NCBI GenBank assembly: GCA_919901915.1
Contig: CAKKQB010000013.1
Coordinates: 64,192-128,191, forward strand
DNA from: Omnitrophica bacterium GWA2_41_15
GTDB lineage: Bacteria > Omnitrophota > Gorgyraeia > Gygaellales > Profunditerraquicolaceae
Direction: 5' to 3'
Length of the DNA: 64,000 nucleotides
Part shown: positions 16,072-49,008 of the stretch, piece after piece
Layout: each line of letters begins with the position of its first letter
Numbering within the stretch: the first letter of the stretch is position 1
Notes under the pieces: model-generated
The model's input: only the letters and a program-made list of their open reading frames with translations
Databases searched by the model: none
What the model was told of the DNA's origin: nothing
Translations under genes and position numbers: made by a program

Positions 16072-17286
16072 CTACCCCGGCCTAAACAATTTAATCAAAT
16101 TCCACATCGGCAGGAATATAGCCAAAGCCATAATTAAAACCATAATCCCTAAAACAAAAATTAATATAGGCTCAATATAAGTAGTCAAATTCCTGATCAT
16201 ATAAGCTGTTTCCCTGTCATAATAATCCGCCACATTTATAAGCAATTCGCCCATCCTGCCTGTTTGTTCTCCGGTTGAGACCATCTGAACTACAACAATA
16301 GGAAACAAATTGCTTACCTTCATCGGTTCAGACATACCCTTGCCCTGGTTAACATTTTCCTTGATATGCCCGATTGCCCGCGCGACAATAATATTTCCGG
16401 ACGTGTTTGCCGTTAAATCCAACACCTCTAAAATAGACACGCCGCTTTCCATTAATATGGCGGTAACACGCGCGAAACGCGACATAATAAGCAAGGTTAT
16501 CAACGGCCCCAAAACCGGAATCTTTAATTTAAGATTATCAAAAATAGGCCTGCCTATTTTTGAATTAATGAAACTCCTTAAACCAAAAATACCTGCTCCT
16601 GTCAACAAAATAAATAAATACCAAAATTTCTTGATACTAATACTAAGGGCGATTAAAATCCTTGTCGGAAGAGGCAATAACGTATTAAACTGGCTGTAAA
16701 TAACCGCAAAACGCGGAATGACAAAGGTAATCACAATAAGAAAAGCTACACATAAAGCAGAAAATGCCAACATCGGATAACGCGTGGCCGCGTTTATGCG
16801 GCTGGAAGTATCAATCTCCTGCTCTAATAACCCCGAGAGCCTTTCCAAAACACCCACTATATTACCGCTGGTCTCCGCGACCTTAATCATCGCGACGTAG
16901 ATACCATTAAAAATTTGGGATTGCTCTTTTAAGCTATCAGAGAAACTTAAGCCTCCTTTAATATTGAGGGCAATTTTTTCAATAACAGATTTAAAATATC
17001 TATTTTTTGTTTGTTGTGCCAGCGTCTCTAAGTTTGATAACAAAGGAAGCCCCGCCTTTTGCATAGAATAAAGCTGGCGCGTAAAAACATCCAACTCTTG
17101 AAGCCCCACGCGCTTAAACCGCTTAAGAATCTTTCCAACGCCCAAATCACGCGCTTCAATAATGGATATGGGAATATAGCCCATATCCGCCAGTTCTTTC
17201 GCGGCAAAATCGCTGGTTTCAGCGACAATCGTGCCTATAGCAAGCTTAGAAAATTTATCACGCGCCTTATATTTAAAATTAGCCAT
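16072..17286 (-). CDS. pilC: type IV pilus platform protein PilC (GspF family)
   Basis: Two T2SSF repeats and three TM segments. Start preferred at ATG 17286 ([10 protein letters not shown]), which overlaps the carB stop by 8 nt. The track start at 17331 is GTG. Confidence 0.9.
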
Positions 17287-18916
17287 ACGTAGAATAATAA
17301 TAAGGTGTAGCGGCATGGAACTCCGCGGCACAGGTATCTACAAGTTTATACACGGGAAAAATATTAAATGATTCGCGTAATTTATACATGTCTTCTTCAT
17401 TTTTACCTAGTAAACGACTCAACTGCCTATCGCTAAAACCAAATTCCTTCGCTTGAGTAAGGAGCTCTTTTGTAATATTATTCTTGTTTTTTATAATCTC
17501 TTTCTCTAAATCAATTATTTCTTTTATATTTGCCAAAAACCAACGGTCAATCTTGGTTAATTCATTAATTTTTTCTATATCCACCCCTATCCTTAAGGCA
17601 TCGCCAATATAAAAGATCCTTTCAGCGTTAGGTATTCTTAACTTTTGCTCAATCTTTTCCCACGCGCCATTATCCAATTCGCCTAAACTTTCTAAACCAT
17701 ACTTTTTAATCTCCAGAGAACGCAGGCCCTTCTGCAAAGCCTCCTTAAAAGTCCTCCCTATCGCCATTACCTCACCAACGGACTTCATAGAAACTGTAAG
17801 CGTGGGATCAGCGGATGGAAATTTTTCAAAAGTAAAGCGGGGAATTTTTACCACGCAATAATCTATTGCCGGTTCAAAACAAGCGGGCGTTTCTTTGGTA
17901 ATATCATTAGGGATCTCATCTAAGGTATAACCCACGGCTAACTTCGCGGCAATTTTCGCGATGGGAAAACCAGTCGCCTTAGACGCCAGAGCAGAGCTTC
18001 TTGAAACCCTTGGATTCATCTCAATAATAACCATGCGCCCGGTTTCAGGATTAATCGCGAATTGAATATTAGAGCCTCCTGTACTAACGCCTATCTCTCT
18101 TATGCAGGCAATTGAGGCGTCGCGCATTTTTTGATATTCTTTATCAGTTAACGTTTGAATAGGCGCGACAGTAATACTATCTCCTGTATGTACGCCCATC
18201 GGATCAAAATTTTCAATGGAACAAACTATTACCACATTATCCATTGAATCCCGCATTACCTCTAATTCAAACTCCTTCCAGCCAATTACCGATTCCTCAA
18301 TAAGAATTTCGCTGTTCATGCTGGACTCAAGGCCATACTTTGCCAAATCCTTAAATTCTTCTATATTATAAGCAACACTTCCGCCTGTTCCGCCTAATGT
18401 AAAACTCGGCCGAATAATCACCGGAAAACCTATCTCTTTAACCGCCTCTATGGCCTCATTTAAATTATAGGCCTTTTTACTTTTAGGCAGGTCCAGGCCA
18501 ATTTTTTGCATCGCCTTTTTAAAAAGCTGCCTGTCTTCGCCTTTTTTGATTGCCTTTATATCTACGCCAATGGTTTCTACCTTATATTTTTTAAGGATTC
18601 CTTTTTCCGCTAAATCTATAGATATATTTAAAGCGGTCTGCCCTCCCAATGTAGGCAATAACGCGTCCGGCCTTTCTCTGGCGATAATCTTTTCTATGAC
18701 CTCTACGGTCATTGGCTCAATATATGTCGCGTCTGCCATTTGAGGGTCGGTCATAATAGTAGCAGGATTTGAATTTATTAAAACTACTTTATAACCTTCC
18801 TGCCTTAAAACCTTGCAGGCTTGAGTTCCGGAATAATCAAATTCACAACCCTGGCTGATAATAATCGGGCCTGAACCAATAATTAGAATCTTCTTTATGT
18901 CAGTACGTTTAGGCAT
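17279..18916 (-). CDS. carB: carbamoyl-phosphate synthase large subunit, N-terminal half only (split CarB)
   Basis: Start at [18 protein letters not shown]. The first ATP-grasp domain is present. It ends ...[19 protein letters not shown], exactly where the second half of a full-length (about 1070 aa) CarB begins. Confidence 0.9.
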
Positions 18917-18922
18917 AATAAT

Positions 18923-19029
18923 TAGCGTAGAGCGTAGAGCGGATAGTAAAATTAGCATTTAGCGTAGAGCGTAGAGCGTTTAATAAAAGTCTTTTGCCTT
19001 TTCTCTACGCTCTACGCTATACGCTATCC
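18923..19029. repeat. A-type heptamer-array hairpin (AGCGKAK)n ... (MTMCGCT)n
   Basis: tagcgtagagcgtagagcggatag...agcgtagagcgtagagcg-loop-ctctacgctctacgctatacgctatcc. The right arm contains the carA stop. Confidence 0.85.
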
Positions 19030-20102
19030 TTCATCATCTCTATAAATTTCCCAAATAGGTATTTCGTATCATGCGGACCAGGAGATGCCTCGGGATGAAA
19101 CTGAACAGAAAAAACAGGCAATTTCTTATGCCGCATTCCTTCCAGGGTATCGTCATTTAAATTTATATGCGTAAGCTCTATATCTTTCTTATCCAAAGAA
19201 TCTATGTCCACGCAAAAACCGTGATTTTGCGCTGTTATACAAACTTTTCCTGTCTTTAAGTCCTTAACCGGATGATTCGCGCCATGGTGGCCGAATTTAA
19301 GTTTATAGGTTTTACCGCCAAAAGCAAGCCCTAACATCTGATGGCCAAGGCAGATTCCGAATATCGGCAATTTACCAATTAAGCCTCTTGTTGTTTCTAC
19401 AACATATTTTACTGCTGATGGATCTCCCGGGCCGTTAGAAAGCAAAACCCCGTCAGGTTTAAGCTCTAAAATATCCTCTGCTCTTGTTTCAGCCGGCACA
19501 ACTACTGCTTCGCAATTATGCTCAACGAGCTCTCTTAAAATATTATATTTTACCCCGCAATCAATCACTACAACCTTATATTTAGCTTTCTTTAAACTAG
19601 GCCAGATATATTTTTTGGCACAACTTACCTCTTTAACTAAGTCTATTCCCGTCAGTCCCAATGACTTTTTTACTTTTTCCACTAAACTCTTTTCATCCAA
19701 ATCTCGCGTAGATAAAACTGCCTTCATCGCGCCTTTTTCTCTGACATGCAAGGTTAGCGCTCTTGTATCTATCCCTTCAATACCCATGATATTATTTTCT
19801 TCTAAGTATTCTCCTAATGACTGCTCCTTGCGCCAATTACTGGCAATTTTACTATATTCTTTTACCGCGAATCCTTCCAGAAACAACCCTGCTGACTCTG
19901 TATCAAGCCTGTTTACGCCATAATTACCAATTAAAGGATACGTCATCGTAACAATCTGGCCTTTATAAGAAGGGTCTGTCAAGATCTCCTGATACCCTGC
20001 CATACTGGTATTAAAAACTATCTCGCCATAGCTTTCGCCAGAAGCGCCAAAAGATTTACCCCTAAATATCATTCCGTCTTCTAATACAAGAATTGCTTCC
20101 AT
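19017..20102 (-). CDS. carA: carbamoyl-phosphate synthase small (glutaminase) subunit
   Basis: 361 aa. CPSase_sm N-domain plus class I GATase triad (GICLGHQ, HPE). Confidence 0.95.
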   Translation of the reverse strand: MEAILVLEDGMIFRGKSFGASGESYGEIVFNTSMAGYQEILTDPSYKGQIVTMTYPLIGNYGVNRLDTESAGLFLEGFAVKEYSKIASNWRKEQSLGEYLEENNIMGIEGIDTRALTLHVREKGAMKAVLSTRDLDEKSLVEKVKKSLGLTGIDLVKEVSCAKKYIWPSLKKAKYKVVVIDCGVKYNILRELVEHNCEAVVVPAETRAEDILELKPDGVLLSNGPGDPSAVKYVVETTRGLIGKLPIFGICLGHQMLGLAFGGKTYKLKFGHHGANHPVKDLKTGKVCITAQNHGFCVDIDSLDKKDIELTHINLNDDTLEGMRHKKLPVFSVQFHPEASPGPHDTKYLFGKFIEMMKDSV

Positions 20103-20107
20103 ATTTT

Positions 20108-20137
20108 TAGCGTATAGCGGATAGCGTAGAGCGTATA
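20108..20137. repeat. A-type heptamer array, single arm
   Basis: tagcgtatagcggatagcgtagagcgtata; no complementary arm seen nearby. Confidence 0.75.
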
Positions 20138-20157: not shown

Positions 20158-21525
20158 TTACTCCAATATGTACTTTGATATTTTTTTCGGCGGCTCTATG
20201 AGGTATTTTCCATCAAAACAAGCAGTGCAAAATTTATCTTTTGGTAAAGGCATAGCTTCCAGCATCCCTTCTTTGCTTAAATATTCAAGGCTATCCGCGC
20301 CGATAAAATCACGTATCCAATCAATGCTATGCTTAGCGGCAATAAGTTCTTTCTTGGTGGGAAAATCAATGCCATAAAAACAAGGGCTGATAAGCGGCGG
20401 GCAGCTTACCCGCATATGCACCTCTTTTGCTCCTGCCTCACGAATAGTTTTAATCCTGACCTTTGAGGTTGTGCCGCGCACAATTGAATCCTCAATAACC
20501 ACAACCTTTTTATCTTTTAAAATCGGCTTCACCGGATTAAGTTTTACCTTCACCCGGAAATCCCTCTGGGCCTGATCTGGCTGAATAAAAGTCCTGCCAA
20601 TATAATGATTACGCATCATTCCCATTTCATAAGAAATGCCTAAATGCTGCGCGTAACCTAACGCGGCGCAAGTACCGGAATCAGGGACAGGCATAACAAT
20701 ATCAGCCTTAACAGGAAATTCCCGCGCAAGCTGTTGGCCTAATTTTTTTCTTGTCTGATAAACATTCTCTTCAAAAATATTGCTGTCCGGCCGCGCGAAA
20801 TAAATGTATTCAAAAATACAAAACCCACAATCTTTTTTTATAACCGGCCTAATCGAATCTATTTTATCCTTTTGAATAAAGACAGTCTCCCCCGGCAAGA
20901 TATCCCGGACATATTGAGCGCCGATTAAATCAAATACACAGGTTTCACTGGCTAGGACATACGCCGCGCCTAATTTTCCTAAACAAAGCGGACGAAATCC
21001 TAAAGGGTCTCGTGAACCAATTAGAATATTATTAAACATTAAAACTAAGGAATACGCGCCTTTTAACTGCGCAAGCGCCCACGGGATTGCCTCTTGATAA
21101 TCTCTCTTAGGGCTATGGGCGATAAGATGCGCGATCACCTCTGAATCCATAGTCGTCTGAAACAACGCGCCCTTATCTTCTAATTGCCGCTGTAATTGAA
21201 ACGCGTTGACAATATTTCCATTATGGGCTATAGCAATATGACAGTTTTTAGTTTTTACATAAAACGGCTGGGCATTTTTTAAGGTACTGCTTCCTGTTGT
21301 GGAATAGCGCACATGACCAATCGCTAAATCGCCTTTGAGGCTAGAAATAGCTTTCTTATCAAATACCTCACTAACCAGGCCAAGGGCTTTATGGATATGG
21401 GGCTTCGAGCCATTGTGGGTAACTATGCCGGCAGATTCTTCGCCACGATGCTGAAGCGCGTATAATCCAAGGTAAGTAATTTTTGCGGCTTCTTTATGCG
21501 GATAAATCCCAAATATTCCACACAT
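20158..21525 (-). CDS. purF: amidophosphoribosyltransferase
   Basis: 455 aa. MCGIFGI Ntn start, PRTase motif VVVIEDSIVRGTT. Confidence 0.95.
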   Translation of the reverse strand: MCGIFGIYPHKEAAKITYLGLYALQHRGEESAGIVTHNGSKPHIHKALGLVSEVFDKKAISSLKGDLAIGHVRYSTTGSSTLKNAQPFYVKTKNCHIAIAHNGNIVNAFQLQRQLEDKGALFQTTMDSEVIAHLIAHSPKRDYQEAIPWALAQLKGAYSLVLMFNNILIGSRDPLGFRPLCLGKLGAAYVLASETCVFDLIGAQYVRDILPGETVFIQKDKIDSIRPVIKKDCGFCIFEYIYFARPDSNIFEENVYQTRKKLGQQLAREFPVKADIVMPVPDSGTCAALGYAQHLGISYEMGMMRNHYIGRTFIQPDQAQRDFRVKVKLNPVKPILKDKKVVVIEDSIVRGTTSKVRIKTIREAGAKEVHMRVSCPPLISPCFYGIDFPTKKELIAAKHSIDWIRDFIGADSLEYLSKEGMLEAMPLPKDKFCTACFDGKYLIEPPKKISKYILE

Positions 21526-21898: not shown

Positions 21899-22276
21899 TC
21901 AGGCAGTTTCGATAGCTCTTGTAGGCCGAGTAATATGAACTTTGTCTTTTTTTACAATTACCATGGCATTTTCAAAGGAAGCAAACATCTTTTTTTCTAC
22001 TAAGGGGTTCAAGATGTTAAGAAGGGCATCGGGAGCGAAAGGGTTAATTCTAAAAAATACAATTCCTTTATGGGTTCCTAAGGGGAATCTATAAAGACTG
22101 GTGAAATCATTATCTAAGGTAAGAATAATTCTATTTTCTTTTCTGCAAAACGAAACTATCTCTTCATCACTAGCCTTTTGCAATCCCACATCTAAGGCTT
22201 TAATAATATCGTAGCCATTCTTACGCAAGAGTTCTACGCCACAGCTAAAGAAACAATGGTCAGCAAATAACTTCAT
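21899..22276 (-). CDS. DUF5615 (PIN-like) putative toxin
   Basis: 125 aa. Has LFADHCF...ASDEEI...RIILTLDNDF, typical of DUF5615. Its start abuts the DUF433 stop. Confidence 0.7.
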   Translation of the reverse strand: MKLFADHCFFSCGVELLRKNGYDIIKALDVGLQKASDEEIVSFCRKENRIILTLDNDFTSLYRFPLGTHKGIVFFRINPFAPDALLNILNPLVEKKMFASFENAMVIVKKDKVHITRPTRAIETA

Positions 22277-22522
22277 TTAGTTAACCTCTTGGACAAAAAC
22301 TTCTTCGTTTTTAAAGATACAGGCAGCGTAATGAATGCAGGCTTTAATATCTTCGGGGGTAATATCAGGATAGCATTGTTTAATAATTTCCTCTATAGCC
22401 AGCCCTTGTTCAATAAGTTCCAGAACCATATAAACAGGAATTCTGGTTTCTTTAATACAGGGTTTTCCAAAGCAGATGTTGGGGTTAATAGAAATTCTAT
22501 CTTCCAGAGAATTATTTGCCAT
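22277..22522 (-). CDS. DUF433 putative antitoxin
   Basis: Start at ATG 22522 (MANNSLEDRISINPNICFGKPCIKETRIPV) with strong RBS GGAGGTGG. The track start at 22552 is an extension. Confidence 0.75.
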   Translation of the reverse strand: MANNSLEDRISINPNICFGKPCIKETRIPVYMVLELIEQGLAIEEIIKQCYPDITPEDIKACIHYAACIFKNEEVFVQEVN

Positions 22523-22613
22523 TGTTTCCACCTCCTGGCTGAAATATAACACGAACTTATATAAGCGTCAAGTTTTATCTCACAAAAATCAGGCCAGCCC
22601 ATATAAGTATAGA

Positions 22614-22704
22614 TGGAAATTAGGGGAAATTAGGGACAGCGACCGTTTTTCTGTAATAAAATAGTCGCTGACCCTATTTTCCGCAATTTCGCAATTTCGA
22701 AATT
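22614..22704. repeat. hairpin with decamer-repeat arms (GGAAATTAGG x2 ... CGCAATTTCG x2) around TAGGGACAGCGAC/GTCGCTGACCCTA
   Basis: Read directly from the sequence. Confidence 0.7.
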
Positions 22705-22847
22705 ATTATGAATAATATTGCCCCAAAGCAACCGCTTTCTTTTTTACCCCTTTTGGTATAGAAATCCCATAATTTATAGTGTATACTTTATTACAAAAAT
22801 ACATATCAGCTATCAGCTGTTGATGAACCGCGGTTCGTGGGATTATT

Positions 22848-23213
22848 ATGATTAACAAAAATAACAACATAGAGACGCCCCAGTGGGGCGTCTCTACAAA
22901 ATTCTTATCTTTAATTCTCTGCTTCTCTCTCCTACTTCAGCAGACAGGCTTGGCTCAGGCTCTGCCTTCTCTTTCTCAGCCTCAACCTCAGCCTTTGCTC
23001 CGCTATCTCTCCGTCAACTCCGCCAATCCCAATAATTATTTTAATTTCCTGATGGATAAGGGTAGTAACGTGTCATTGCGAAGAGGAGCGCTTTTTAGCG
23101 ACGACGAAGCAATCTTTTTACGAAGTAACTCTTTAAAAGATTGCTTCACCCTCGCTAACGCTCGGGTTCGCAATGACACATTACTTTCCACAATAATTAC
23201 GAATGACTCCTAA
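22848..23213 (+). CDS. doubtful ORF / gene remnant; signal-peptide-like segment flanked by repeat-derived sequence
   Basis: 121 aa. Residues ETPQWGVST derive from hairpin 22869-22897. The C-terminal 45 aa derive from palindrome 23072-23177. Only plus-strand candidate; weak RBS. Confidence 0.2.
   Translation: MINKNNNIETPQWGVSTKFLSLILCFSLLLQQTGLAQALPSLSQPQPQPLLRYLSVNSANPNNYFNFLMDKGSNVSLRRGALFSDDEAIFLRSNSLKDCFTLANARVRNDTLLSTIITNDS
23072..23177. repeat. GTCATTGCGA...TCGCAATGAC nested palindrome (core III)
   Basis: gtcattgcgaagagg...gaagcaatct...agattgcttc...gggttcgcaatgac. Confidence 0.8.
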
Positions 23214-23227
23214 TTTGTGCTATTTAC

Positions 23228-23517
23228 TTAGGTAACCTCTTCTATCGGCAGGAGAAAGGCTTTTACGCCTTCCTTATTTAAGGTTTCTCTCAATTTTCTT
23301 ACGCGGGATAAAAGTTTCTTAGCCAAATCATCCTCGCAAGCCACCGCTAAAACATTATTTAGGCCCGGCCATACGTTACTATCTAAATGCGGCTCACTTA
23401 CTTTGCCTTTACCTAAAACACGCTGCCATTTAGTAAAATGTTAATACCGCAGGCCTCTAAGGCATCCATAACCTCTATGTCAATTGCTTCATTATAAGTA
23501 ATCAAAACTAGCTTCAT
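23228..23517 (-). pseudogene. small P-II-like transporter-associated protein, disrupted by a 1-nt frameshift
   Basis: ATG 23517 overlaps the RND stop (ATGA). Frame 1 reads MKLVLITYNEAIDIEVMDALEACGINI, then stops. The adjacent frame continues FTKWQRVLGKGKVSEPHLDSNVWPGLNNVLAVACEDD...EEVT*. The span is 290 nt (3n+2). The shift is at the A4 run 23435-23438. Confidence 0.65.
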
Positions 23518-26500: not shown

Positions 26501-26621
26501 CAATTTCAGGCATCAAATCAAGAGGAAGCCGAAAAAAAGAAACTATCCCCCAGACTAGGACCGCGAAAAAAATCATCAGATTTGCTACCGGGTATTTTAC
26601 GCCGAATTCAGGTAATTTCAT
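23514..26621 (-). CDS. RND efflux transporter permease (AcrB/HAE1-like)
   Basis: 1035 aa, 12 TM segments, two large periplasmic loops, typical ACR_tran sequence. Confidence 0.95.
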   Translation of the reverse strand: MKLPEFGVKYPVANLMIFFAVLVWGIVSFFRLPLDLMPEIEPPSISVITVYEGASAEDVESKVTEVIENNLATVANLDKLTSRSMEGTSVVSCRFKWGVNLDEASNDIRDKLEFAKRLLPEEIDTPIVFKFNTSMIPILYFSVSSEKYYTQLYHLMDKNVAEALKRLPGVGAVQISGGRERQINVSLDRGRLEAYNISPQQVINRLSEENITLPAGGLKIGFTDYSLRVPGEFSNPEQIKDIILTQQAEKTVYLKDVASVADSFKEETMFVRSNNVPSVMMMIQKRSGANTVDIVKSVRKELLRLQPLLPEGIKFAVLMDNAEHIEQSINDLSQTIYWGGIFVVIVVFFFLRQFLPSLIITLTIPFSLIIAFTFMYFFGYTINIISLSSLAIAIGMVVDNAIVIVDNIVRKLERGQKPKEAAIFGSSEVGSAVSASTFTTVVVFLPMVFITGIVGVFFRQLAVMITVTLLASLFTALTFSPMLSSLWLKNPAAEPVKDKKDLWRFLYEKSGKLLSFFDYTYAKILTQALKFKGATIFIAIGVFIFSIFLISRVGTEFVPEEDSGDLTITVEMPVGTRVEETDRAARAMEKIIYGEVPEAKQVYSRSGQSTTSGRFGSVFSAKSGSNVATVGIKLSKTTQRSRSAKEIGESLRPKLKTILGVKKVNISSISPISRLMFGAGKPVSVEILGNDFTITGQLANKIKDKMERIPGVVDTSISRDIGKPELQIEVDRTKASLLGLSMRQITDTLRTYFYGSAATKYREAGEEYDVFVRLKDEDRASISDIENISLLNSAGKVIRLSSIAAVVYKTGPIQIERQNQERIIKVEANVFRRSLGEVAKDVRKIIETENIPQGITVNLGADVEEQAKSFRDLFLLFLLGALLVYMVMASQFGSLIDPFIIMFSVPFAFTGVAFSLFVTGTTLNIASFIGLIMLVGIVVNNAIVLVDYINILRSRGLSIADAVVTGGANRLRPVLMTTITTLFGMIPLAFSRGEGSETWRPIGISMIGGLSISTLITLVLVPVIYALIKGRRHKQ

Positions 26622-27499: not shown

Positions 27500-27501
27500 T
27501 T

Positions 27502-28764: not shown

Positions 28765-28766
28765 TT

Positions 28767-31110: not shown

Positions 31111-31291
31111 TTTAATTCTCCTTTTCTATTTGTTACACAATTTCTCTGCCTATAGCTTTGGCTATCGAAAGCCAAAGCTAAAAATTAAAAAGACACCTTA
31201 GAAAGTATTCAGAACGTCTTTGTTCTATACTTCTTTCGAAAAACCCAACCTGCTTCTTTGCAAGTTCCGGCTGTCTTAAATTATTGACAAA

Positions 31292-31527: not shown

Positions 31528-33186
<1,659 letters not shown>

Positions 33187-39386: not shown

Positions 39387-39389
39387 ATT

Positions 39390-39558
39390 TTTAGCGTATA
39401 GCGTATAGCGTAGAGCGTAGAGCGTATAGCGTATAGCGTAGAACGTAGAGCGTAGAGCGGATAGCGGATAGTAAAAATCTATGTTTTAACTATATGTTAT
39501 CCGCTATTCCTACACGCTTTCTTTCCTATCCGCTAAACGCTATACGCTCTACGCTAAT
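39390..39558. repeat. A-type heptamer-array hairpin, largest copy (left arm about 11 units)
   Basis: tagcgtatagcgtatagcgtagagcgtagagcgtatagcgtatagcgtagaacgtagagcgtagagcggatagcggatag, then a loop, then a degenerate complementary arm. Confidence 0.85.
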
Positions 39559-39589
39559 ATAAAATACCTCATAGACCTACGAGGCATAT

Positions 39590-41803: not shown

Positions 41804-41840
41804 GTGTATAGCGGATAGTTTTACTTTTTTTTATCCACTA
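41804..41840. repeat. short degenerate A-type hairpin
   Basis: gtgtatagcggatag-ttttactttttt-ttatccacta. Confidence 0.5.
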
Positions 41841-41865: not shown

Positions 41866-43023
41866 CTAAGCATCAAGAAATTCTTCAGCATCCGCGTAGG
41901 CCTCTGCTCTTCTGCCAAAAAGCGAAAGTATTAATCCCGAGATATACCCACTAACAAAAGCTAGTACAACAGCAATAACAATACCTGTCCACTGCTTTCT
42001 GCAATCTAATCCGCTTACAACAAACATCGCGGCAATACCGCCCATTAAACCGGGTAGCCCATGTAAACACATAACACCGCAAGTATCTACTTTCTTAATT
42101 TTATTCTGCAACCATGGGAGAATAACAGCAAAACCAAATACCGACAAGGCTCCGGCTAATAATCCGATTACCATTGAACTAACTGGGTTCGCGTAATCAC
42201 AAGTAGAACCAATAGCCACGCCGCCAGCCAATGACGCGTTCGCGATATCACTAATTGAAATCTTGCGCCTCAAAACACAAGAAGTAATATAGGTAGCTAA
42301 CGTCGCGCCGCAAAGAGCAATAACCACATTAATTACCGTTTGTGGCACCTTTGCCGTTGGCACAAGCGCCGCGCAAAAACTTGGCCAAAAAAACCACAAG
42401 ACCATACTCCCCAACATTGAGAATCTGTCGCTTACAACATCCGTTTCTATGGGTGTATCAAATTCTTTTTTTGTGGTCAAATTCATTATCAGGCCAAACC
42501 CAAAAATAGCTCCGAAGGCATGGATTATTATAGAACCTCCAGTATCCGCGAAACCGCCATTAGGCAACAATCCAAAGCCGCCTGAAAGAATTATCCATTC
42601 ATTCAACATATAACAAGGAACAAAAAGCAACCCTAATATAATATATTGAATCATTTTTAATCTGCCTAACACCGCGCCGGCACAGATCAAAAGGCCTGCT
42701 CCCGCGAACTCTGCCAAAATCAAGCCGTCTATACCTGTCTGAACATTTCCAAATAAACCTAAACTATTGAGACAAATATATAACGGTACTGCCACGCTTA
42801 CCAGCAAGAATGTCGCTGTCAACGCGGAGCGCCCATACTTTTTAACAAAAACCATCAAAAAACCAAACCCAACTAAAAGCATTGCCATTATATGTATTGC
42901 CCGATCACATTTTTGAACATCTGTAACTGGGCCTAAAAAATCCTCTGCCGAACTAACACGCAGAAAAATTAACGACGCAGCCAACACCAACAACAATATT
43001 AACATCCAACGATTTTTTTTCAT
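41866..43023 (-). CDS. ammonium channel, Rh-type (Rh50-like) rather than AmtB-type
   Basis: 385 aa, about 11 TM segments. Has LVGFGFLMVFVKKYGRSA and IIHAFGAIFGFG, which resemble Rh-family signatures. Confidence 0.75.
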   Translation of the reverse strand: MKKNRWMLILLLVLAASLIFLRVSSAEDFLGPVTDVQKCDRAIHIMAMLLVGFGFLMVFVKKYGRSALTATFLLVSVAVPLYICLNSLGLFGNVQTGIDGLILAEFAGAGLLICAGAVLGRLKMIQYIILGLLFVPCYMLNEWIILSGGFGLLPNGGFADTGGSIIIHAFGAIFGFGLIMNLTTKKEFDTPIETDVVSDRFSMLGSMVLWFFWPSFCAALVPTAKVPQTVINVVIALCGATLATYITSCVLRRKISISDIANASLAGGVAIGSTCDYANPVSSMVIGLLAGALSVFGFAVILPWLQNKIKKVDTCGVMCLHGLPGLMGGIAAMFVVSGLDCRKQWTGIVIAVVLAFVSGYISGLILSLFGRRAEAYADAEEFLDA

Positions 43024-43083
43024 TTTATCCTTTCTTTGCCTAAAAAAGTAACTTCCCTTAATAAGCTGAAGACGTCCCTGTCC

Positions 43084-43121
43084 TTAAAAACAAGAAGCCC
43101 CAAAACATTTTGGGGCTTCTT
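43084..43121 (-). terminator. intrinsic-terminator-like hairpin + U tract located inside the predicted leader of the Rh-type channel gene
   Basis: Minus strand reads aagaagccccaaaatgttttggggcttctt followed by gttttt. Confidence 0.6.
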
Positions 43122-43147
43122 TGCCTTTGACTTAATTGTCAATTAAG

Positions 43148-43175
43148 ATCATAGCATATTTCATATTCTTGTCAA
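43148..43175 (-). promoter_or_regulatory. sigma70-type promoter (tttttcTTGACA-16-TATGAT) upstream of the Rh-type channel gene
   Basis: Minus strand reads TTGACAagaatatgaaatatgcTATGAT, followed by palindrome cttaattgacaattaag. Confidence 0.5.
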
Positions 43176-43201
43176 GAAAAAAAATGCAAGGGGAGGGGAA
43201 T

Positions 43202-44635
43202 TTAGGTTCTTTCGTCTTTAAGGTAGTTAATTATTGAAAAAGCGGCTTTCTTAGCCATGCCCATTGCCTCAATAACCGTGCCTTCTCCACCCACGATATC
43301 TCCGCCGGCAAAAACGCCTTTAATAGATGTCTCCATAGTTTGGGGGTTTACGATAACATCTTTGTATTTATCGGTTTTTAACTCCGATGTAACATTAGTT
43401 AAAACCTGATTTGCCTGCAAACCCACGGCAATAATCGCTATATCGCAATCTATTCCAAAATCGCTTCCCTCTACAGCAACCGGCCTTCTTCTCCCGGATT
43501 CATCCGGCTCTCCCAAGCGGCACCTAAGACACCTTAACTTTTGCACCTTTCCTTCCTCATCGCCGATAAACTCTACTGGCTGAACCAAAAATTCAATTTT
43601 TATTCCCTCTTCCTTAGCATGTTCGATTTCCAATCTTCTTGCCGGCATCTCAACTTCAGTCCTACGATAAAGAATTGTGGTGTTAGGGCTAAACCCATTT
43701 ATTATTTGCAATCTTAACGCGGCTCGAGCAGCATCCAAAGCTGTATTGCCTCCGCCAACAACTAAGACCTGCTTACCTATATTAATAGGGGTGTGAAACT
43801 GAGGAAACTTGTCAGCTAACATCAAATTAACCCGAGTTAAGAATTCATTGGCTGAATAAACATTGCCTAAATTCTCGCCTTTTATTTCTAAAAATGACGG
43901 CACACCCGCGCCCAACCCCAGAAATATAGCAGAATATCCTTCGCTAAAAAGCTCATCTAACGCCTTAACTTTTCCCACAATAAAATTAGGGATGAGTTGA
44001 ACCCCCAATTTCTTTAACTCATTTATTTCATAATCAAGAACATCGCGCGGCATCCTAAAAGGGGGTATCCCATACCTTAAAACTCCGCCCGGTTTATGCA
44101 AACTCTCAAAGATATCCACCTTTACTCCCTGCCTTGCCAATTCACCGGCGCAAGCCAAACCAGCCGGACCAGAACCCACAACCGCGACTTTAAACCCAAA
44201 CTTAACAAATTTCTGATCCTTGCCTGCTGGCGCCTCCAAATTATTCTTTACCCCATAATCACCGACAAATCTTTCCAAAAAATGAATATTGATTGCCTGC
44301 TCTGAAGCAAAAGAGGCGGTCTTTTTTGTCAAAACACAAGCCCTGCGGCACTGATATTCCGCGGGACAAACCCTTCCGCAAATAGAGGGAAAATCATTCT
44401 TTTCCCGAAGAATAAAATAAGCCGCCCTATAATCTTTTTTGGTAATCCAAGAGATAAACTCCTTTATATTTATTCCTACGGGACAACCGAATTGACAAAT
44501 AGGGTTCGGACACTGCAGACAGCGGTTAGCCTCAATAAGCGCCTCTTCTTCTGTGTATCCTAAAACTACCTCATCAAAATTCTTTATTCTTTCTGAAGGA
44601 TTTAATTCTCTTACTTTTACTGCTTCTTTTTTCAT
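43202..44635 (-). CDS. nfnB: NfnB/SudA-like NADPH-dependent glutamate-synthase-beta-type oxidoreductase
   Basis: 477 aa. Two Fe-S Cys clusters, GSGPAGL and GGGNTA folds. Paired with the NfnA-like gene. Confidence 0.75.
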   Translation of the reverse strand: MKKEAVKVRELNPSERIKNFDEVVLGYTEEEALIEANRCLQCPNPICQFGCPVGINIKEFISWITKKDYRAAYFILREKNDFPSICGRVCPAEYQCRRACVLTKKTASFASEQAINIHFLERFVGDYGVKNNLEAPAGKDQKFVKFGFKVAVVGSGPAGLACAGELARQGVKVDIFESLHKPGGVLRYGIPPFRMPRDVLDYEINELKKLGVQLIPNFIVGKVKALDELFSEGYSAIFLGLGAGVPSFLEIKGENLGNVYSANEFLTRVNLMLADKFPQFHTPINIGKQVLVVGGGNTALDAARAALRLQIINGFSPNTTILYRRTEVEMPARRLEIEHAKEEGIKIEFLVQPVEFIGDEEGKVQKLRCLRCRLGEPDESGRRRPVAVEGSDFGIDCDIAIIAVGLQANQVLTNVTSELKTDKYKDVIVNPQTMETSIKGVFAGGDIVGGEGTVIEAMGMAKKAAFSIINYLKDERT

Positions 44636-44659: not shown

Positions 44660-44732
44660 TTTAGCGGATAGCGTATAGCGTATATATAGGTTTTACTATC
44701 CGCTATACGCTCTACGCTATACGCTATACGCT
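44660..44732. repeat. A-type heptamer-array hairpin
   Basis: tttagcggatagcgtatagcgtata-loop-tatccgctatacgctctacgctatacgctatacgct. The right arm contains the nfnA stop. Confidence 0.85.
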
Positions 44733-45569
44733 TGATATTTTAAGATTACAGATATGCTTTTCTTTATCTAAATAAACACTGTTCCTCTTTGTCAATTCAT
44801 CCCAATTTACTTGAGTTCCGTCAAATTCCGGGCCATCAACGCAAGCAAATTTCGTCTTACCTGCCACAGTTACACGGCAACAGCCGCACATTCCAGTAGC
44901 ATCTACCATCAAAGGATTCAAAGAAACAATGGTTTTAACTTTAAAATCGCTAGCAACCTCGCAAACTCTTCTCATCATCGGTATCGGGCCGACTGCGTAA
45001 ATTAGCGAATAGCGGATAGCGGATAGTGAATAGCTTAATACCTCCTGCAAAATATCAGTAACAAAGCCTTTCCTGCCGCAAGAACCGTCATCAGTGGTTA
45101 TATAAAGCTCATCGCAAAACACCTTTAGCTCCTGCTCCAAAATCAATAAATCATTGTTTCTTGCGCCCAGTATAGTAGTAGTATGGTTTCCCGCTTCTTT
45201 CAAAGCCTTGGCAACCGGATAAATCTCCGCAATTCCTACGCCTCCGCCTACAAGAATTAAATTTCCAAAATTTTTAATCTCAGTAGCATGCCCCAGGGGC
45301 CCGGCCAAAGCGTATAATGAATCACCAACCTCCATCTTGCCCAGCAACTTAGTAGTTAAGCCAACCTCTTGAAAGATCAAGGTAATTGTGCCTATGTCAG
45401 AATTTTTATCTACTATAGTTAGAGGTATCCTTTCGCCTTCCTCGCATACCATAAGAACAACAAATTGGCCCGGTCTTACTTTCCTGGCAATAAGCGGGCT
45501 TAAGATTTCAAAGCGCTTAATTGTTACGTCTTGCGTTTGTGCTAAAATTTCTTTTTTGATTATCCGCAT
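44724..45569 (-). CDS. nfnA: NfnA/SudB-like FAD/NAD-binding ferredoxin-reductase-type subunit (PyrK family)
   Basis: 281 aa. Has RPGQFV, GGGVGIA and a C-terminal 2Fe-2S Cys cluster (GMCGCCRV...CVDGPEF). Confidence 0.75.
   Translation of the reverse strand: MRIIKKEILAQTQDVTIKRFEILSPLIARKVRPGQFVVLMVCEEGERIPLTIVDKNSDIGTITLIFQEVGLTTKLLGKMEVGDSLYALAGPLGHATEIKNFGNLILVGGGVGIAEIYPVAKALKEAGNHTTTILGARNNDLLILEQELKVFCDELYITTDDGSCGRKGFVTDILQEVLSYSLSAIRYSLIYAVGPIPMMRRVCEVASDFKVKTIVSLNPLMVDATGMCGCCRVTVAGKTKFACVDGPEFDGTQVNWDELTKRNSVYLDKEKHICNLKISSV
45001..45035. repeat. A-type heptamer array (single arm) inside nfnA, in frame
   Basis: agcgaatagcggatagcggatagtgaatagc encodes SYSLSAIRYSLIY. Confidence 0.7.
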
Positions 45570-45607
45570 AGAAAAAATTGATTACCGAAAGAAAAGGATT
45601 CGTTGAT

Positions 45608-45728
45608 GGGACTGTTGTGAAATACCAAACCTTGCGTCATTCTGAGGCCGAAAGCCGAAGAATCTCGACGCTGATAAGATCCTTCGCTTCGCTCAGGATG
45701 ACGAAAAAGGGTATTTCGCAACGGTCCC
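45608..45728. mobile_element. MITE-like element, short variant (ends GGGACTGTTGTGAAATACC / GGTATTTCGCAACGGTCCC)
   Basis: Same end family as 8025-8197 and 51992-52164, but with core II inside (gtcattctgaggccgaaagccgaagaatc...gctcaggatgac). Confidence 0.75.
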
Positions 45729-45740
45729 TTGATCGGAATC

Positions 45741-46478
45741 TTACTTTACATCACTGTAATCATTCTTATTTTTTAATTCGGCAGTTAAAATAATTGCTTC
45801 GGCGATTTCGCGCATGGACTTACGTTTATCCATACTCTGTTTTTGAATTAATCTGTAGGCCTCGGATGGTTTTACATCTGCCTCCTGGGAAAGTATATCC
45901 TTTGCCCGTTCAATCAGCTTGCGGGTAACTAAGGCTTCTTCAGCGCTATGCGCCCGCAAAGATAATTCAGCATTTTCAATGGCCATAGCCGTCTGATTGG
46001 CCAAAGTTGTAAGAAGACTTATCTCGGATTTTGTAAACTTATGTCTTTTTGAGGTATAACAATTAAGCACGCCGATTACTGTCCCTCTTACTGCCAAAGG
46101 GACACTAGCCAAAGAACAAAGCCCTTCTTTTTTAGCGATGTCCCTATTTAAGTAATCCGCGTCTTCCCTGACATCCAAAACAACCATTGATTTATTATCC
46201 CGCGCAACCGCTCCCGCAATCCCCTCTCCTAATTTTATATTGGGTTTTTTATTGTAGCTTTGAGAAATAGACTGGGTCGCGCGTACAACTAATTCTTTCC
46301 TCTCGGAATCAAGAAGCATCAAAGAAGAGATTTTTAAATTCATCACCTGGGCAGTAACCTCAACAACTAAACGAAGAAGCTCGTCCAGATACAAGCCTGA
46401 AGTAATCAGGTTCGCGACCTTAGAAATCGCCTCAATCTGCTTTGTATAAACCTGATAACCCTTTACCTTTTTAATCAT
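45741..46478 (-). CDS. GAF + ANTAR domain RNA-binding antitermination regulator
   Basis: 245 aa. A GAF domain, then an ANTAR-like C-terminus (LVTRKLIERAKDILSQEADVKPSEAYRLIQKQSMDKRKSMREIAEAII). Confidence 0.85.
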   Translation of the reverse strand: MIKKVKGYQVYTKQIEAISKVANLITSGLYLDELLRLVVEVTAQVMNLKISSLMLLDSERKELVVRATQSISQSYNKKPNIKLGEGIAGAVARDNKSMVVLDVREDADYLNRDIAKKEGLCSLASVPLAVRGTVIGVLNCYTSKRHKFTKSEISLLTTLANQTAMAIENAELSLRAHSAEEALVTRKLIERAKDILSQEADVKPSEAYRLIQKQSMDKRKSMREIAEAIILTAELKNKNDYSDVK

Positions 46479-46484: not shown

Positions 46485-47642
46485 TTAACGATTCCTCTTC
46501 AAAAAACTTTCTATTCTACTTAACGCCTCTTTCAAATTATCAAAACTTGCGGCATAGGATATGCGAATATTGTCCGCGAACTGAGCGCCAAAAGCTGTGC
46601 CCGGAATAACCGCGACCTTTTCCTCCTTTAAAAGCTGTTGGCAAAAATCCATCGCCTTAAGACCGCTGCTTTTTATGCTGGGAAAAGCATAGAAAGCACC
46701 CTGCGGCTTTGAACACTCAAGGCCGATGCGATTCAGCTCACTAACCACAAACTCTCTTCTTCGTTTATATTCACGCTTCATCTCTTCCACTGATTTTCTG
46801 CCTGAATGCATCGCTTCAGAAGCAGCTATTTGAGAAGTAATAGACACGCACATAATGGTATACTGATGAATCTTAGTCATAGCCGCGATAATCTCTTTTG
46901 GGCCGCAAGCAAAGCCCACACGCCAGCCAGTCATCGCGTAACTTTTGGAAAAACCATCAAGATAAACAGTCGAATTTTTTGCTTGAGGCAATGTCGCGAA
47001 AGGCGTATGAGTAAAATCATACGTCAAATCTCCATAAACCTCATCGCTGATACAAAGCAGATTATACTTCAACGCGATCTTCTTAATTTCCTCTAATTCT
47101 TTTTTAGTATAAGATACGCCCGTAGGATTAGTAGGGTAGTTCAATATAATTGCTTTAGCTTTCTTGTCTATGCTCTTCTCCAAGCTTTCCGGTGTAAGCT
47201 TAAAATTGTTTTTACTTGTATCGATATAAACAGGTATACCGCCGGCTAATTCACTAACCGGGCCGTAAGAAACATAACATGGCTCGGGTATAATTATTTT
47301 ATCACCCGGATTTATAATGGAACGCAAAACTAAATCCAAAGCCTCGCTTACCCCAACAGTAATCAAAATCTCTTCATCCGGACAATAATCCAAACCGTAT
47401 TTATTTTTTAGGTATTGTGAAATGGTCAGCCTTAATTTATACAAGCCCTTATTTGAGGTGTAAGAGGTAAAACCCTCTTCTAATGAAGCTATCCCTGCTT
47501 CGCGTATCTGCCAAGGCGTAACAAAATCCGGCTCACCCACGCCAAGGGAAATTACATCCTTCATGCCTAATACTAAATCAAAAAACGCGCGAATTCCGGA
47601 GGGATGCATTTGCTTAACTTTTTCGGAAACCAAATCTTTCAT
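46485..47642 (-). CDS. class I/II PLP-dependent aminotransferase (AspC-like)
   Basis: 385 aa. Has NPTG and the PLP lysine motif SKSYAMTGWRVG. Confidence 0.9.
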   Translation of the reverse strand: MKDLVSEKVKQMHPSGIRAFFDLVLGMKDVISLGVGEPDFVTPWQIREAGIASLEEGFTSYTSNKGLYKLRLTISQYLKNKYGLDYCPDEEILITVGVSEALDLVLRSIINPGDKIIIPEPCYVSYGPVSELAGGIPVYIDTSKNNFKLTPESLEKSIDKKAKAIILNYPTNPTGVSYTKKELEEIKKIALKYNLLCISDEVYGDLTYDFTHTPFATLPQAKNSTVYLDGFSKSYAMTGWRVGFACGPKEIIAAMTKIHQYTIMCVSITSQIAASEAMHSGRKSVEEMKREYKRRREFVVSELNRIGLECSKPQGAFYAFPSIKSSGLKAMDFCQQLLKEEKVAVIPGTAFGAQFADNIRISYAASFDNLKEALSRIESFLKRNR

Positions 47643-47649: not shown

Positions 47650-47716
47650 AGCGTTTAGCGGATAGCGTTTAGCGTATAGTTTTTTTTATCCGCTATACGC
47701 TCTACGCTATACGCTA
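47650..47716. repeat. A-type heptamer-array hairpin
   Basis: cagcgtttagcggatagcgtttagcgtatag-ttttttt-tatccgctatacgctctacgctatacgcta. Confidence 0.85.
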
Positions 47717-48202
47717 TTAATACGATATAGCTATCCTCTTATTCTCTTCCCTGTGCTTCAAAATCACTCCATCTTCCTTATATTTTTTTAATAAAAAGTG
47801 CGTGACTATGCCGCGGATATTCTCGAGGCAAGAAAGTTTCTCCGCTACAAATTGTGAAACTTTTTGTAAATTCTTGCCCTCAACTATAACCAAAAGGTCA
47901 TACGTGCCGGAAATCAAGCAACAGTCAGTTACCTCCGGAAACGAATAAATACGCTCAGCAATTTTATCAAAACCAATATCCTTTTGCGGAGCAATATTAA
48001 CCTCTATCAAAGCCCTGACGGAAGGCTCTTCGGTTTTAATTAAATCCTTATTTATTACTGTTTTATATTTTAAAATTATCCCCTCTTTTTCATACTTTTT
48101 TATCGCCTCTTTTATTGCCTCCGGCTTTTTCTTTAACATTTTCGCGATCTCTTCCGGAGTTACAAGCGCGTTCTTTTCTAATATCTCTAATATTTCGTCC
48201 AT
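47717..48202 (-). CDS. Lrp/AsnC family transcriptional regulator
   Basis: 161 aa. An HTH, then a RAM/AsnC_trans_reg domain. Confidence 0.85.
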   Translation of the reverse strand: MDEILEILEKNALVTPEEIAKMLKKKPEAIKEAIKKYEKEGIILKYKTVINKDLIKTEEPSVRALIEVNIAPQKDIGFDKIAERIYSFPEVTDCCLISGTYDLLVIVEGKNLQKVSQFVAEKLSCLENIRGIVTHFLLKKYKEDGVILKHREENKRIAISY

Positions 48203-48225
48203 TACCTCGCTCCTTTCAGTCGCTC

Positions 48226-48287
48226 GGAGAGAACAGATTACAGAGTACGGATTACTGAAAGATTTTTCTGTGCTCTGTTCTCTGTGC
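48226..48287. repeat. C-type heptamer hairpin (CAGAGMA units), overlapping the nadE 3' end
   Basis: ggagagaacagattacagagtac...ctgtgctctgttctctgtgc. Related to 61007-61095. Confidence 0.7.
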
Positions 48288-49008
48288 TTTCTTTAATATA
48301 GCATATTTTCGGCCCTTCCCTCTTATGCTCTGATTTCTTTACCATATTTTTTACTTTATTTACTTTCTCTTTTGATAAGACCTGTTTCTTCTTGTTTTCC
48401 AAACGCTCCAATATGTCATCTAACTCGTTATAGGTAAGCCCCATTTCTCCTTCATCGGTCTGGCCTGGCCAGAGTCCGGCAGTAGGCGGCTTAGTAACAA
48501 TGGATTCGGGAATCTTTAATTCTTTAGCCAATGCCCTTACCTGTTTTTTTAATAAACCGCCGATTGGCAAAATATCCGTTGCCCCGTCGCCATACTTGGT
48601 AAAATAACCGACTTCAATTTCAGATCTATTTCCTGTGCCGCAGACAAGATAATTAAGTTTATTGGCAAAATAATATAAAACTAACATCCTTAAGCGCGGT
48701 TTTAAATTTGCCAAAGCTAACGGCCCCGCTTTGGGTAAAATTTTCATGACATTGTCGTAAATATCAGCCAAATCAATTAATTTTATTTTTATCCCAAATT
48801 TCCTTGCCACTAACTTTGCGTCATCTAAATCCTGTTTTTGACTATGACAGCCAAGAAACAAAACCAAAAGTTTTTGTTTACCCAGCGCTTCCCTGGCTAA
48901 AACAGCTACCACCGCGGAATCTATCCCCCCGCTTAAACCCATAACAATACCCTTTGCCTTAGCCGCTTTGACCTGCTGCCTAATCCAAGAAATAATTTTC
49001 TTTTTCAT
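48238..49008 (-). CDS. nadE: NH3-dependent NAD+ synthetase
   Basis: 256 aa with the SGGIDS PP-loop. The last about 16 aa (STENRAQKNLSVIRTL) are repeat-derived. Confidence 0.9.
   Translation of the reverse strand: MKKKIISWIRQQVKAAKAKGIVMGLSGGIDSAVVAVLAREALGKQKLLVLFLGCHSQKQDLDDAKLVARKFGIKIKLIDLADIYDNVMKILPKAGPLALANLKPRLRMLVLYYFANKLNYLVCGTGNRSEIEVGYFTKYGDGATDILPIGGLLKKQVRALAKELKIPESIVTKPPTAGLWPGQTDEGEMGLTYNELDDILERLENKKKQVLSKEKVNKVKNMVKKSEHKREGPKICYIKESTENRAQKNLSVIRTL

Follow-up and report, generated by a model that had tools for sequence, protein, structure and literature searches.

A conserved nitrogen-assimilation neighborhood in Omnitrophota with predicted ANTAR-type attenuators and a GAF-ANTAR protein as their candidate reader

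Introduction

Omnitrophota is a phylum without a cultured model, in which nitrogen physiology has been inferred from gene lists only. Here, we analyze a stretch of 64,000 nt from Omnitrophica bacterium GWA2_41_15 (contig CAKKQB010000013.1, positions 64,192 to 128,191; hereafter, the window), in which genes for a type III glutamine synthetase (GSIII), an NADPH-type glutamate synthase (gltBD), an Rh50-type ammonium channel and a GAF-ANTAR one-component regulator lie within an unbroken series of minus-strand genes, as read from the listing of its open reading frames (ORFs). The window is a derived, rearranged version of a nitrogen neighborhood conserved in Omnitrophota, and we consider it rather probable that units of this neighborhood are tied together by ANTAR-type attenuators, with the GAF-ANTAR protein as their candidate reader. 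Our literature search returned no description of this cluster in Omnitrophota.

Gene identities were checked by NCBIfam, Pfam or PDB searches. The comparison set comprised 80 Omnitrophota loci, one genome per species, reaching up to 10 kb on each side of GSIII and amounting to 1.17 Mb, which were compared by tblastn with the window proteins and by clustering of all ORFs; single loci are given by L numbers.

Results

Gene content of the block

GSIII (39590-41785; this and all genes below are on the minus strand) encodes 731 amino acids and presents all three domains of the type III class (PF12437 GSIII_N, 5e-73; PF00120 Gln-synt_C, 2e-20; PF18318 Gln-synt_C-ter, 7e-37) at a size near the ~730 amino acids expected, being 83-89% identical to Candidatus Omnitrophota GSIII proteins. 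It is followed by gltB (34743-39386) and gltD (33323-34750), assigned by family search to the NADPH-type glutamate synthase, and by pyrG (31528-33135; PRK05380, E = 3e-255), which encodes a glutamine-hydrolyzing CTP synthase. Ahead of GSIII stands the channel gene (41866-43023), whose 385-residue product is nearer to Rh than to AmtB proteins, matching Nitrosomonas europaea Rh50 (PDB 3b9w) at E = 4e-113, human RhAG at 5e-50 and RhCG at 1e-45, vs. about 1e-6 for Escherichia coli AmtB; the JGI label of its homologs is “ammonium transporter Rh”. As the first-pass annotation had stated, a P-II gene is missing: tblastn detected no glnK or other P-II gene next to the channel or elsewhere in the 64 kb.

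Upstream of the channel lie an NfnB-like gene (43202-44635; TIGR01316, 1e-160, above its cut-off) and an NfnA-like gene (44724-45569; PRK06222, 7e-111), two subunit families that fit NfnAB and also take in SudAB-type enzymes. They are preceded by a unit composed of nadE (48238-49008; 256 amino acids, of the NH3-type because it has no nitrilase domain), an asnC-family regulator gene (47717-48202), a class I/II aminotransferase gene (46485-47642), the latter two assigned by family search, and the GAF-ANTAR gene (45741-46478; Pfam GAF_2 and ANTAR, the ANTAR match at E = 3.8e-17).

Beyond pyrG, the gene that we call GltS-FMN (29467-31110) encodes a 547-residue FMN-type protein of the glutamate-synthase family, with PF01645 Glu_synthase (E = 4.6e-17) as its sole match. 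The protein bears the sequence DGSGGGTG and, at its N-terminus, a Cys motif. PDB sequence and profile searches gave no match to it, and a single-sequence AlphaFold model had a mean predicted local distance difference test (pLDDT) score of 38 and was unusable. At the far end stand purF, encoding amidophosphoribosyltransferase (20158-21525; TIGR01134, E = 7e-162), carA, encoding the glutamine amidotransferase subunit of carbamoyl-phosphate synthase (19017-20102; TIGR01368, E = 3.5e-160), and the N-terminal half of carB (17279-18958; PRK05294, model positions 1-541 of 1058), for which tblastn found no second half in the window. The split carB directly adjoins pilC (16072-17331), and another Omnitrophota lineage carries a full-length carB of 1096 amino acids (L084, 10474-13764).

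All gene identities proposed in the first-pass annotation, including those of the Rh50-type channel, GSIII, the NfnAB-like pair, the GAF-ANTAR protein and the NH3-type nadE, held in these searches. The dense co-directional clustering that it had emphasized is real as to both clustering and strand, but the strand agreement is a whole-genome property: all 40 ORFs of at least 150 amino acids in the window lie on the minus strand, GC skew is negative throughout, and 648 of the 677 large ORFs in the relatives' loci share the strand of GSIII. Co-directionality is therefore uninformative in these genomes, a point to be borne in mind in annotation.

A conserved core with a variable slot

Across the 80 loci, a recurrent gene order emerged: (nrdJ-apgM-)mnmG-Fer4-nadE-asnC-aminotransferase-GAF-ANTAR-[slot]-GSIII-(small Fis-type helix-turn-helix (HTH) gene)-gltB-gltD, followed by a PPDK_N-like protein gene, ExbBD or pyrG-carA-carB-N. 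The adjacencies from nadE to the GAF-ANTAR gene are kept in approximately 22-25 relatives, with the aminotransferase gene directly before the GAF-ANTAR gene in 22/31 loci, and the latter lies within 10 kb upstream of GSIII in 24/37, at distances from 31 nt to 9 kb. AmtB is found upstream of GSIII in 41/52 loci and P-II directly before it in 40/61, while the HTH gene comes next after GSIII in 44/67, gltB follows within 3.5 kb in 41/46, and pyrG lies within ~3 kb after gltD in 11/28. Since the core order recurs in species-level relatives, the clustering exceeds what chance would produce, and the suspicion that the order might not be conserved in any relative falls away. The placements of nfnAB-Rh50 and of GltS-FMN, efflux, toxin-antitoxin (TA)-like and purF genes are specific to this genome.

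The slot between the GAF-ANTAR gene and GSIII is usually occupied by one to three amtB-glnK pairs along with genes for a sigma-70-like and a porin-like protein (Pfam). Depending on the species, it may instead carry a glutamine-dependent NAD synthase gene with a type I glutamine synthetase gene, an nfnA-nfnB-gdhA module (L026, L028, L032, L059), or a GAF-ANTAR paralog with GltS-FMN, a pairing found in five relatives. Thus, one conserved slot beside glutamine synthetase has been refilled with alternative ammonium-handling modules: amtB-glnK, Rh50, nfnAB-gdhA, GltS-FMN and NAD synthase. In the window the slot consists of nfnA-nfnB-Rh50, without amtB-glnK, so that Rh50 occupies the position of the relatives' amtB-glnK. 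An Rh50 gene next to GSIII was not seen in any of the 80 loci, where the Rh50 query matched at best AmtB proteins, at 26-30% identity. Rh50 homologs 80-87% identical to the window protein do occur in other Omnitrophota, in varied contexts that include a GSIII-amtB-P-II-porin-Rh50-carA-carB series (L084).

Downstream, carA and carB-N follow pyrG where the sequence extends that far (L031, L048, L065), and purF follows gltD in L082. In the window, ~11.4 kb separate pyrG from carA, holding GltS-FMN, a MarR-TolC-MFP-RND efflux operon (23514-29117), a DUF5615/DUF433 TA-like pair (21899-22552), both assigned by family search, and purF. The stretch with the TA-like pair and the efflux operon (21899-29117) has a raised GC content of 0.43-0.44, and no such genes separate pyrG from carA in L031, L048 and L065. 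The carA, carB-N and purF genes are thus tied to the core by ancestral synteny only (gltD-pyrG-carA-carB-N in these three loci). A search of the window for the Fis-type HTH gene and the sigma-like gene found neither.

Some neighbors deserve mention in their own right. A 235-residue 4Fe-4S protein related to QueG and reductive dehalogenases (49108-49815) is encoded between mnmG and nadE in many relatives. The HTH gene between GSIII and gltB in 44/67 relatives (e.g., L006, 12350-12733) encodes a 127-residue protein that combines a receiver-like but degenerate N-terminus with an HTH_8 domain of the Fis type, and is the first gene after the attenuator there. It has long been debated whether Rh proteins conduct CO2; in L085 (7102-9158) and L086 (4047-6103), Rh50 is the next gene ~560 nt downstream of a carbonic-anhydrase-like gene (Pfam Pro_CA_2).

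ANTAR-type attenuators in relatives

The ANTAR two-hairpin mechanism and its link to nitrogen genes have been described (PMC3369931). In the 80 loci, paired hairpins with A..G.. hexaloops number 177 on the sense strand vs. 41 on the antisense strand, and concentrate before amtB, GSIII, the HTH-gltBD unit, and sigma and porin genes. A complete ANTAR attenuator, including competition between the second hairpin and a terminator, could be read in 22 leaders, with a first hairpin (P1) GCAC[A..G..]GTGC, a linker, a second hairpin (P2) GAAC[A.AG.C]GTTC, and a terminator; the 3' arm of the latter (TGAACGTC plus a T-run) pairs anew with the P2 3' half.

A covariance model (A1, R1) built from these 22 leaders gave, as R1, 85 matches when run over the whole comparison set of 1.17 Mb, none of them antisense; 94.5% of the cells are paired, and five pairs have changed on both sides. 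The gene following each match could be mapped in 69 cases: the HTH-gltBD unit in 32, gltB directly in 3 more, GSIII in 18, amtB in 3, a porin gene and a glutamine-dependent NAD synthase gene in 2 each, and a type I glutamine synthetase gene and the GAF-ANTAR paralog in 1 each. A second P2 class, GAC[A..G..]GTC, whose terminator is GACGTCTTC...GAAGTCGTC followed by Ts, stands before sigma, porin, amtB and P-II genes, nfnA (L032, L042, L059) and GltS-FMN (L027), and the operons of the GAF-ANTAR paralog with GltS-FMN have promoters and tandem attenuators upstream. Taken together, attenuators in relatives precede amtB-glnK, GSIII, gltBD, nfnAB-gdhA, glutamine-dependent NAD synthase and GltS-FMN units. 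As a negative control, four Omnitrophota loci, from lineages in which no GAF-ANTAR gene lies in the Rh50 locus, gave 0 matches in 58 kb. Rfam at gathering thresholds returned tRNA only and holds no curated family for these leaders.

In one of these four loci, from a different lineage (L084, 420-9158), a NifA-like GAF-sigma54 activator-HTH_8 protein is encoded directly upstream of GSIII-amtB-P-II-porin-Rh50-carA-carB, without ANTAR-type attenuators, and there appear therefore to be two alternative regulatory solutions around the same genes.

Attenuator-like leaders of Rh50 and GltS-FMN in the window

In the window, two leaders contain two tandem hexaloop stem-loops each, those of Rh50 and GltS-FMN, which also carry the two top-ranking sigma-70-like promoters in a scan of 20 kb. 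The Rh50 leader (43037-43178), identified by hairpin scan, alignment and nhmmer, begins with the best of these promoters, TTGACA-16-TATGAT (43175-43148, 11/12 consensus positions), followed by P1, TTGAC[AATTAA]GTCAA (43142-43127), and P2, GGC[AAAGAA]GCC (43125-43114). P2 overlaps the 5' arm of a 13-bp terminator with T5 (43121-43092), the best terminator of the region, and a second unit, AGGAC[AGGGAC]GTCTT (~43085-43069), has a weak terminator and T6 (43047-43042). The amtB/porin leaders of L010, L011, L020, L037, L057 and L063 can be aligned with it column by column, and an nhmmer profile of these six leaders alone matches the window at 43178-43052 with E = 4.4e-22. The Rh50 leader is homologous to the relatives' amtB leaders. 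It escapes models R1 and R2, since the leaders used to train them belong to the GSIII/gltB class. Because the 80-nt spacer between Rh50 and GSIII contains no terminator, the two genes, as read from the sequence, probably form one attenuator-controlled operon.

The GltS-FMN leader (31180-31319), identified by hairpin scan and covariance models, has a promoter-like TTGACA-16-TAAGAT (31319-31292) with an extended -10 element, P1 AACTTGC[AAAGAA]GCAGGTT (31266-31247) and P2 TAGAAC[AAAGAC]GTTCTG (31227-31210), both loops having A at position 1 and G at position 4 (A1/G4). Its terminator comprises a weak 7-bp arm and T-runs to ~31180. R1 and R2 match it at E = 0.01 and 0.013. The orthologous leader of L027 keeps both loop sequences while its stems differ (CTTAC/GTAAG; GAC/GTC).

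The remaining leaders are of other kinds. Those of pyrG, purF, nfnA and the aminotransferase gene hold REP-like palindromes or heptamer hairpins without an ANTAR motif, and the purF leader has a promoter-like site of its own, TTGACG-17-TATACT (~21829-21801). The spacer between GSIII and gltB (39387-39589) contains a terminator-like hairpin (39587-39564) and then a large heptamer-repeat hairpin, made of 11 copies of TAGCGTA and the complement (-82.7 kcal/mol, z = -7.8), where even the closest relatives, at 87-88% GSIII identity, have an attenuator and the HTH gene. The first-pass annotation had proposed a search for shared leader motifs upstream of units starting at 31110, 43023 and 46478; a shared motif is present at the first two, GltS-FMN and Rh50, while the GAF-ANTAR gene at 46478 has no leader at all, just a 6-nt gap to the aminotransferase gene. 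AGGAG-like sites stand before GSIII, Rh50 and GltS-FMN. For gltB no Shine-Dalgarno sequence is recognizable at 39380-39400, and the heptamer array ends 8 nt before its ATG.

Heptamer arrays and palindromes

Tandem arrays of 7-nt units number 21 in the window. They are mostly inverted pairs that form long intergenic hairpins, with the units TAGCGTA, AGCGTAG and AGCGGAT and their complements, and AACAGAG at 61 kb. Arrays lie at 18924-19025, 20108-20137, 37899-38010, 39392-39556, 41809-41830, 44662-44732, 45003-45034, 47650-47717, 53670-53700 and 61008-61097. They resemble the STRR heptamer repeats of cyanobacteria. Seven is the commonest repeat period in the relatives' loci too, with units that differ by genome, and most relatives lack the arrays. 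Because relatives have mostly no arrays or different units, those of the window are young and genome-specific rather than a conserved signal. Heptamer hairpins also lie in frame within gltB (37899-38010), adding ~35 amino acids (SADSVERIADRKSKTLYALRSTLYANKSYPLSANK), and within nfnA (45003-45034), adding 4, in both cases at loops variable among orthologs, an arrangement reminiscent of Rickettsia palindromic elements. Codons 1-14 of the carB-N ORF likewise derive from the repeat, and its true start is probably Met15 (~18916).

Other repeats are found in the window. REP-like palindrome families (e.g., GTCATTCCGGCGAAAGCCGGAATCCA, CGTAGGGGCGAGCTTGCTCGCCC) lie in spacers at 29287-29362, 52013-52142, 56160-56219, 45600-45730, 31400-31470 and 33215-33235, a 130-nt imperfect palindrome separates the GAF-ANTAR gene from nfnA, and such palindromes yield spurious small ORFs. 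One of these, orf92 (31281-31559), has no family match, overlaps the GltS-FMN promoter and a REP-like palindrome, and was treated as spurious. A 464-bp tandem duplication with 100% identity (14714-15598) spans two prepilin-type genes (14737-15240, 15201-15617), and the decamer repeats TTTATCCGTG flank pilin genes (8210-8255, 13986-14046, 14692-14734, 15178-15198).

The GAF-ANTAR protein

PDB matches of the GAF-ANTAR protein fall on GAF domains and on the ANTAR domains of Rv1626 and NasR, and the GAF domains nearest to its own are those of PtsP, Nlh and NifA-type proteins. Orthologs across Omnitrophota are 76-82% identical, and the GAF-ANTAR gene and its paralog are the only ANTAR genes in these loci. 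On these sequence grounds, the protein is probably the cognate reader of the attenuators. As to its ligand, we can offer a guess by analogy with what the GAF domains of PtsP and NifA sense, namely, that it might be 2-oxoglutarate or glutamine.

Discussion

A model for the neighborhood and its derivation

The attenuators of relatives each comprise two small hexaloop hairpins (A1, G4), and the 3' half of the second also forms part of an intrinsic terminator. In the mechanism that we propose, scarcity of nitrogen would lead the GAF domain of the GAF-ANTAR protein encoded in the neighborhood to bind its metabolite, and an ANTAR dimer would clamp both hairpins, such that the terminator could no longer form and RNA polymerase would read into the genes for ammonium uptake and assimilation. 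The direction of this regulation, antitermination upon nitrogen limitation, is what we infer. In the lineage of the window, the slot has been refilled with nfnA-nfnB and Rh50, placing Rh50 behind the old amtB-type promoter and attenuator, and a second attenuator would control GltS-FMN. Heptamer-repeat hairpins have taken the place of the attenuator and HTH gene before gltBD, and the stretch from GltS-FMN through the efflux operon and TA-like pair to purF has been inserted between pyrG and carA.

The proposal that NfnAB supplies reductant becomes more plausible with the nfnA-nfnB-gdhA modules of relatives; together with the NADPH-type gltBD of the window, this association would make NfnAB a supplier of NADPH, a role that is still conjectural. 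The supra-operonic nitrogen regulon suggested in the first-pass annotation is partly supported: the core is conserved and attenuators are shared, but in this genome they stand before two units only, and the carAB/purF arm belongs to the neighborhood by ancestral synteny only.

Weighing the interpretations

Several observations weigh against a regulon tied by attenuators. The raw count of dual hairpins in the window is at chance (3 vs. 3.3 in shuffles), and the case for attenuators in the window rests on position and homology to relatives, not on counts. With R1 and R2 and on reading of the leaders, no attenuator was found in the window before gltBD, pyrG, purF, carA or nfnA, nor does the nadE-asnC-aminotransferase-GAF-ANTAR unit have one there. 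The GltS-FMN leader is the only window site that reaches E ~0.01 with the covariance models, and both it and the second Rh50 unit have weak terminators. The P1 loop of the Rh50 leader, AATTAA, has T rather than G at position 4; its P2 and second-unit loops fit A1/G4, and some relatives likewise have GATTAA or AATTGA in the corresponding P1 loop. In addition, the genome may encode further ANTAR proteins beyond the 64 kb, and no member of the GAF-ANTAR class has been characterized (PMC3369931, PMC7496416). Finally, the conserved order reaches into non-nitrogen neighbors (nrdJ-apgM-mnmG), and synteny alone is therefore no proof of co-regulation.

One rival view is that the block reflects inherited synteny alone, with gene order frozen in a small strand-biased genome, genes expressed independently or constitutively and the two hairpin leaders as relics. 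Such a view would accommodate the co-directionality of every window gene, the retention in order of nrdJ, apgM, mnmG and the Fer4 protein gene beside the block, the scarcity of attenuators among the window leaders, the loss of the one before gltBD, and the degenerate look of the Rh50 P1 and of two terminators. It accounts poorly for an Rh50 leader that retains its promoter, P2 and 13-bp terminator and its strong similarity to the relatives' amtB leaders, for a GltS-FMN leader whose loops are kept relative to L027 while the stems differ, which suggests selection on structure, and for a GAF-ANTAR-GSIII slot repeatedly refilled with nitrogen-related cargo rather than with random genes; we regard it as rather improbable. 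Less probable still is a regulon run mainly by DNA-binding regulators, AsnC here and sigma-70-like, Fis-type HTH and P-II proteins in relatives, with the hairpins as ordinary terminators or targets of another ANTAR protein. The conservation of asnC within its unit, the sigma-like, HTH_8 and glnK genes in relatives' clusters and the GAF-sigma54 activator upstream of GSIII in a different Omnitrophota lineage speak for it, but the sigma, HTH and P-II genes are absent from the window, and a search for sigma-54 promoters gave 21 consensus matches vs. 22 expected, none in leaders. Moreover, the hairpins bear the ANTAR signature (hexaloops, A1/G4, overlap of P2 with the terminator) strictly on the sense strand, in loci where the GAF-ANTAR protein and its paralog are the only ANTAR proteins encoded.

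We see very little chance that the heptamer-repeat hairpin (TAGCGTA/CTATACG) serves as a common signal for RNA processing, stability or termination of nitrogen genes. Arrays do occupy the carA/carB, purF/carA, GSIII/gltB, Rh50/GSIII, nfnA/nfnB and asnC/aminotransferase junctions, 8/9 arrays of this unit lie inside the block, and they fold very stably; yet the same unit is also found at nrdJ/apgM, arrays of other units stand close to pilin genes and at 61 kb, the in-frame insertions within gltB and nfnA are the behavior of selfish repeats, and relatives mostly lack arrays or have other units. For their occurrence at non-nitrogen junctions and inside ORFs and their genome specificity, the heptamers were rejected as the main shared motif, and they serve as a caution that repeat-derived hairpins can mimic shared leader motifs.

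We retain as rather probable the interpretation of ANTAR-type attenuators with the GAF-ANTAR protein as candidate reader. A bolder proposal, which we advance tentatively and consider doubtful, is that this protein acts as a P-II-independent one-component nitrogen sensor, responding to 2-oxoglutarate or glutamine and running by antitermination nearly the whole ammonium-assimilation program of this Omnitrophota clade, and that Rh50 has functionally replaced AmtB-GlnK under this control here. If true, the GAF-ANTAR architecture would thereby gain its first defined regulon and signal, and the genome would be a natural experiment with a bacterial Rh50 as a nitrogen-regulated uptake channel without a P-II plug. 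The exchange of amtB-glnK for Rh50 behind an unchanged leader supports, indirectly and on genomic grounds, a role of bacterial Rh50 in ammonium handling, and the neighborhood offers a concrete, testable GAF-ANTAR regulon, made up of the protein together with no fewer than two classes of RNA target and over 80 naturally occurring sequence variants.

Comparison with known systems

The channel of the window has its closest solved homolog in N. europaea Rh50 (PDB 3b9w, 3bhs; E = 4e-113 over residues 38-383). To our knowledge, the N. europaea gene also has no linked glnK. Unlike it, the window gene stands behind an amtB-type leader, under predicted ANTAR control, and directly upstream of GSIII, and other Omnitrophota Rh50 genes have other gene contexts. 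As in canonical amtB-glnK and glnA-ntrBC clusters, an ammonium channel gene adjoins those of glutamine synthetase and glutamate synthase, and relatives have amtB-glnK at that very position; unlike the canonical P-II clusters, the window has an Rh50-type channel, no P-II gene in 64 kb, a GSIII, and control that apparently acts after initiation, by attenuation.

Antitermination by ANTAR proteins in nitrogen metabolism is known for EutV, NasR and AmiR, and regulons have been predicted in Desulfotomaculum acetoxidans, Pelobacter and others (Ramesh et al. 2012, PMC3369931). The Omnitrophota neighborhood shares with these regulons tandem A1/G4 hexaloop hairpins, the second overlapping an intrinsic terminator, as well as targets that include P-II, ammonium transporter, glutamine synthetase and glutamate synthase genes, the distribution over several units and an ANTAR protein encoded nearby (PMC3369931). 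It differs in that the sensor is a GAF domain within a one-component protein, in that the host phylum is uncultured, and in that the predicted targets include an Rh50 channel, NfnAB(-GDH), a stand-alone GltS-FMN and NAD synthase.

In Geobacter sulfurreducens, the GnfK/GnfR system, whose GnfR is a REC-ANTAR protein, controls nitrogen-fixation genes by antitermination (Ueki & Lovley 2010, PMC2995071). The GnfR site CAGGCAANGGCGCC, a GGC[AANGGC]GCC hairpin (PMC2995071), is like the Omnitrophota P2 (GGC[AAAGAA]GCC, GAAC[A.AGGC]GTTC), and, as in GnfR, an ANTAR protein is here proposed to relieve premature termination in nitrogen-gene leaders. GnfR is phosphorylated by a kinase and placed under a sigma-54/GnfLM cascade (PMC2995071), whereas the Omnitrophota system presents no receiver domain, kinase or sigma-54 promoter signal; its attenuators precede assimilation genes, while GnfR targets nif genes. 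An ANTAR-based nitrogen regulon is thus of an already known kind, and what is new lies in the host phylum, in the use of a GAF sensor, in the wide range of targets and in Rh50 having replaced amtB-glnK behind an unchanged leader.

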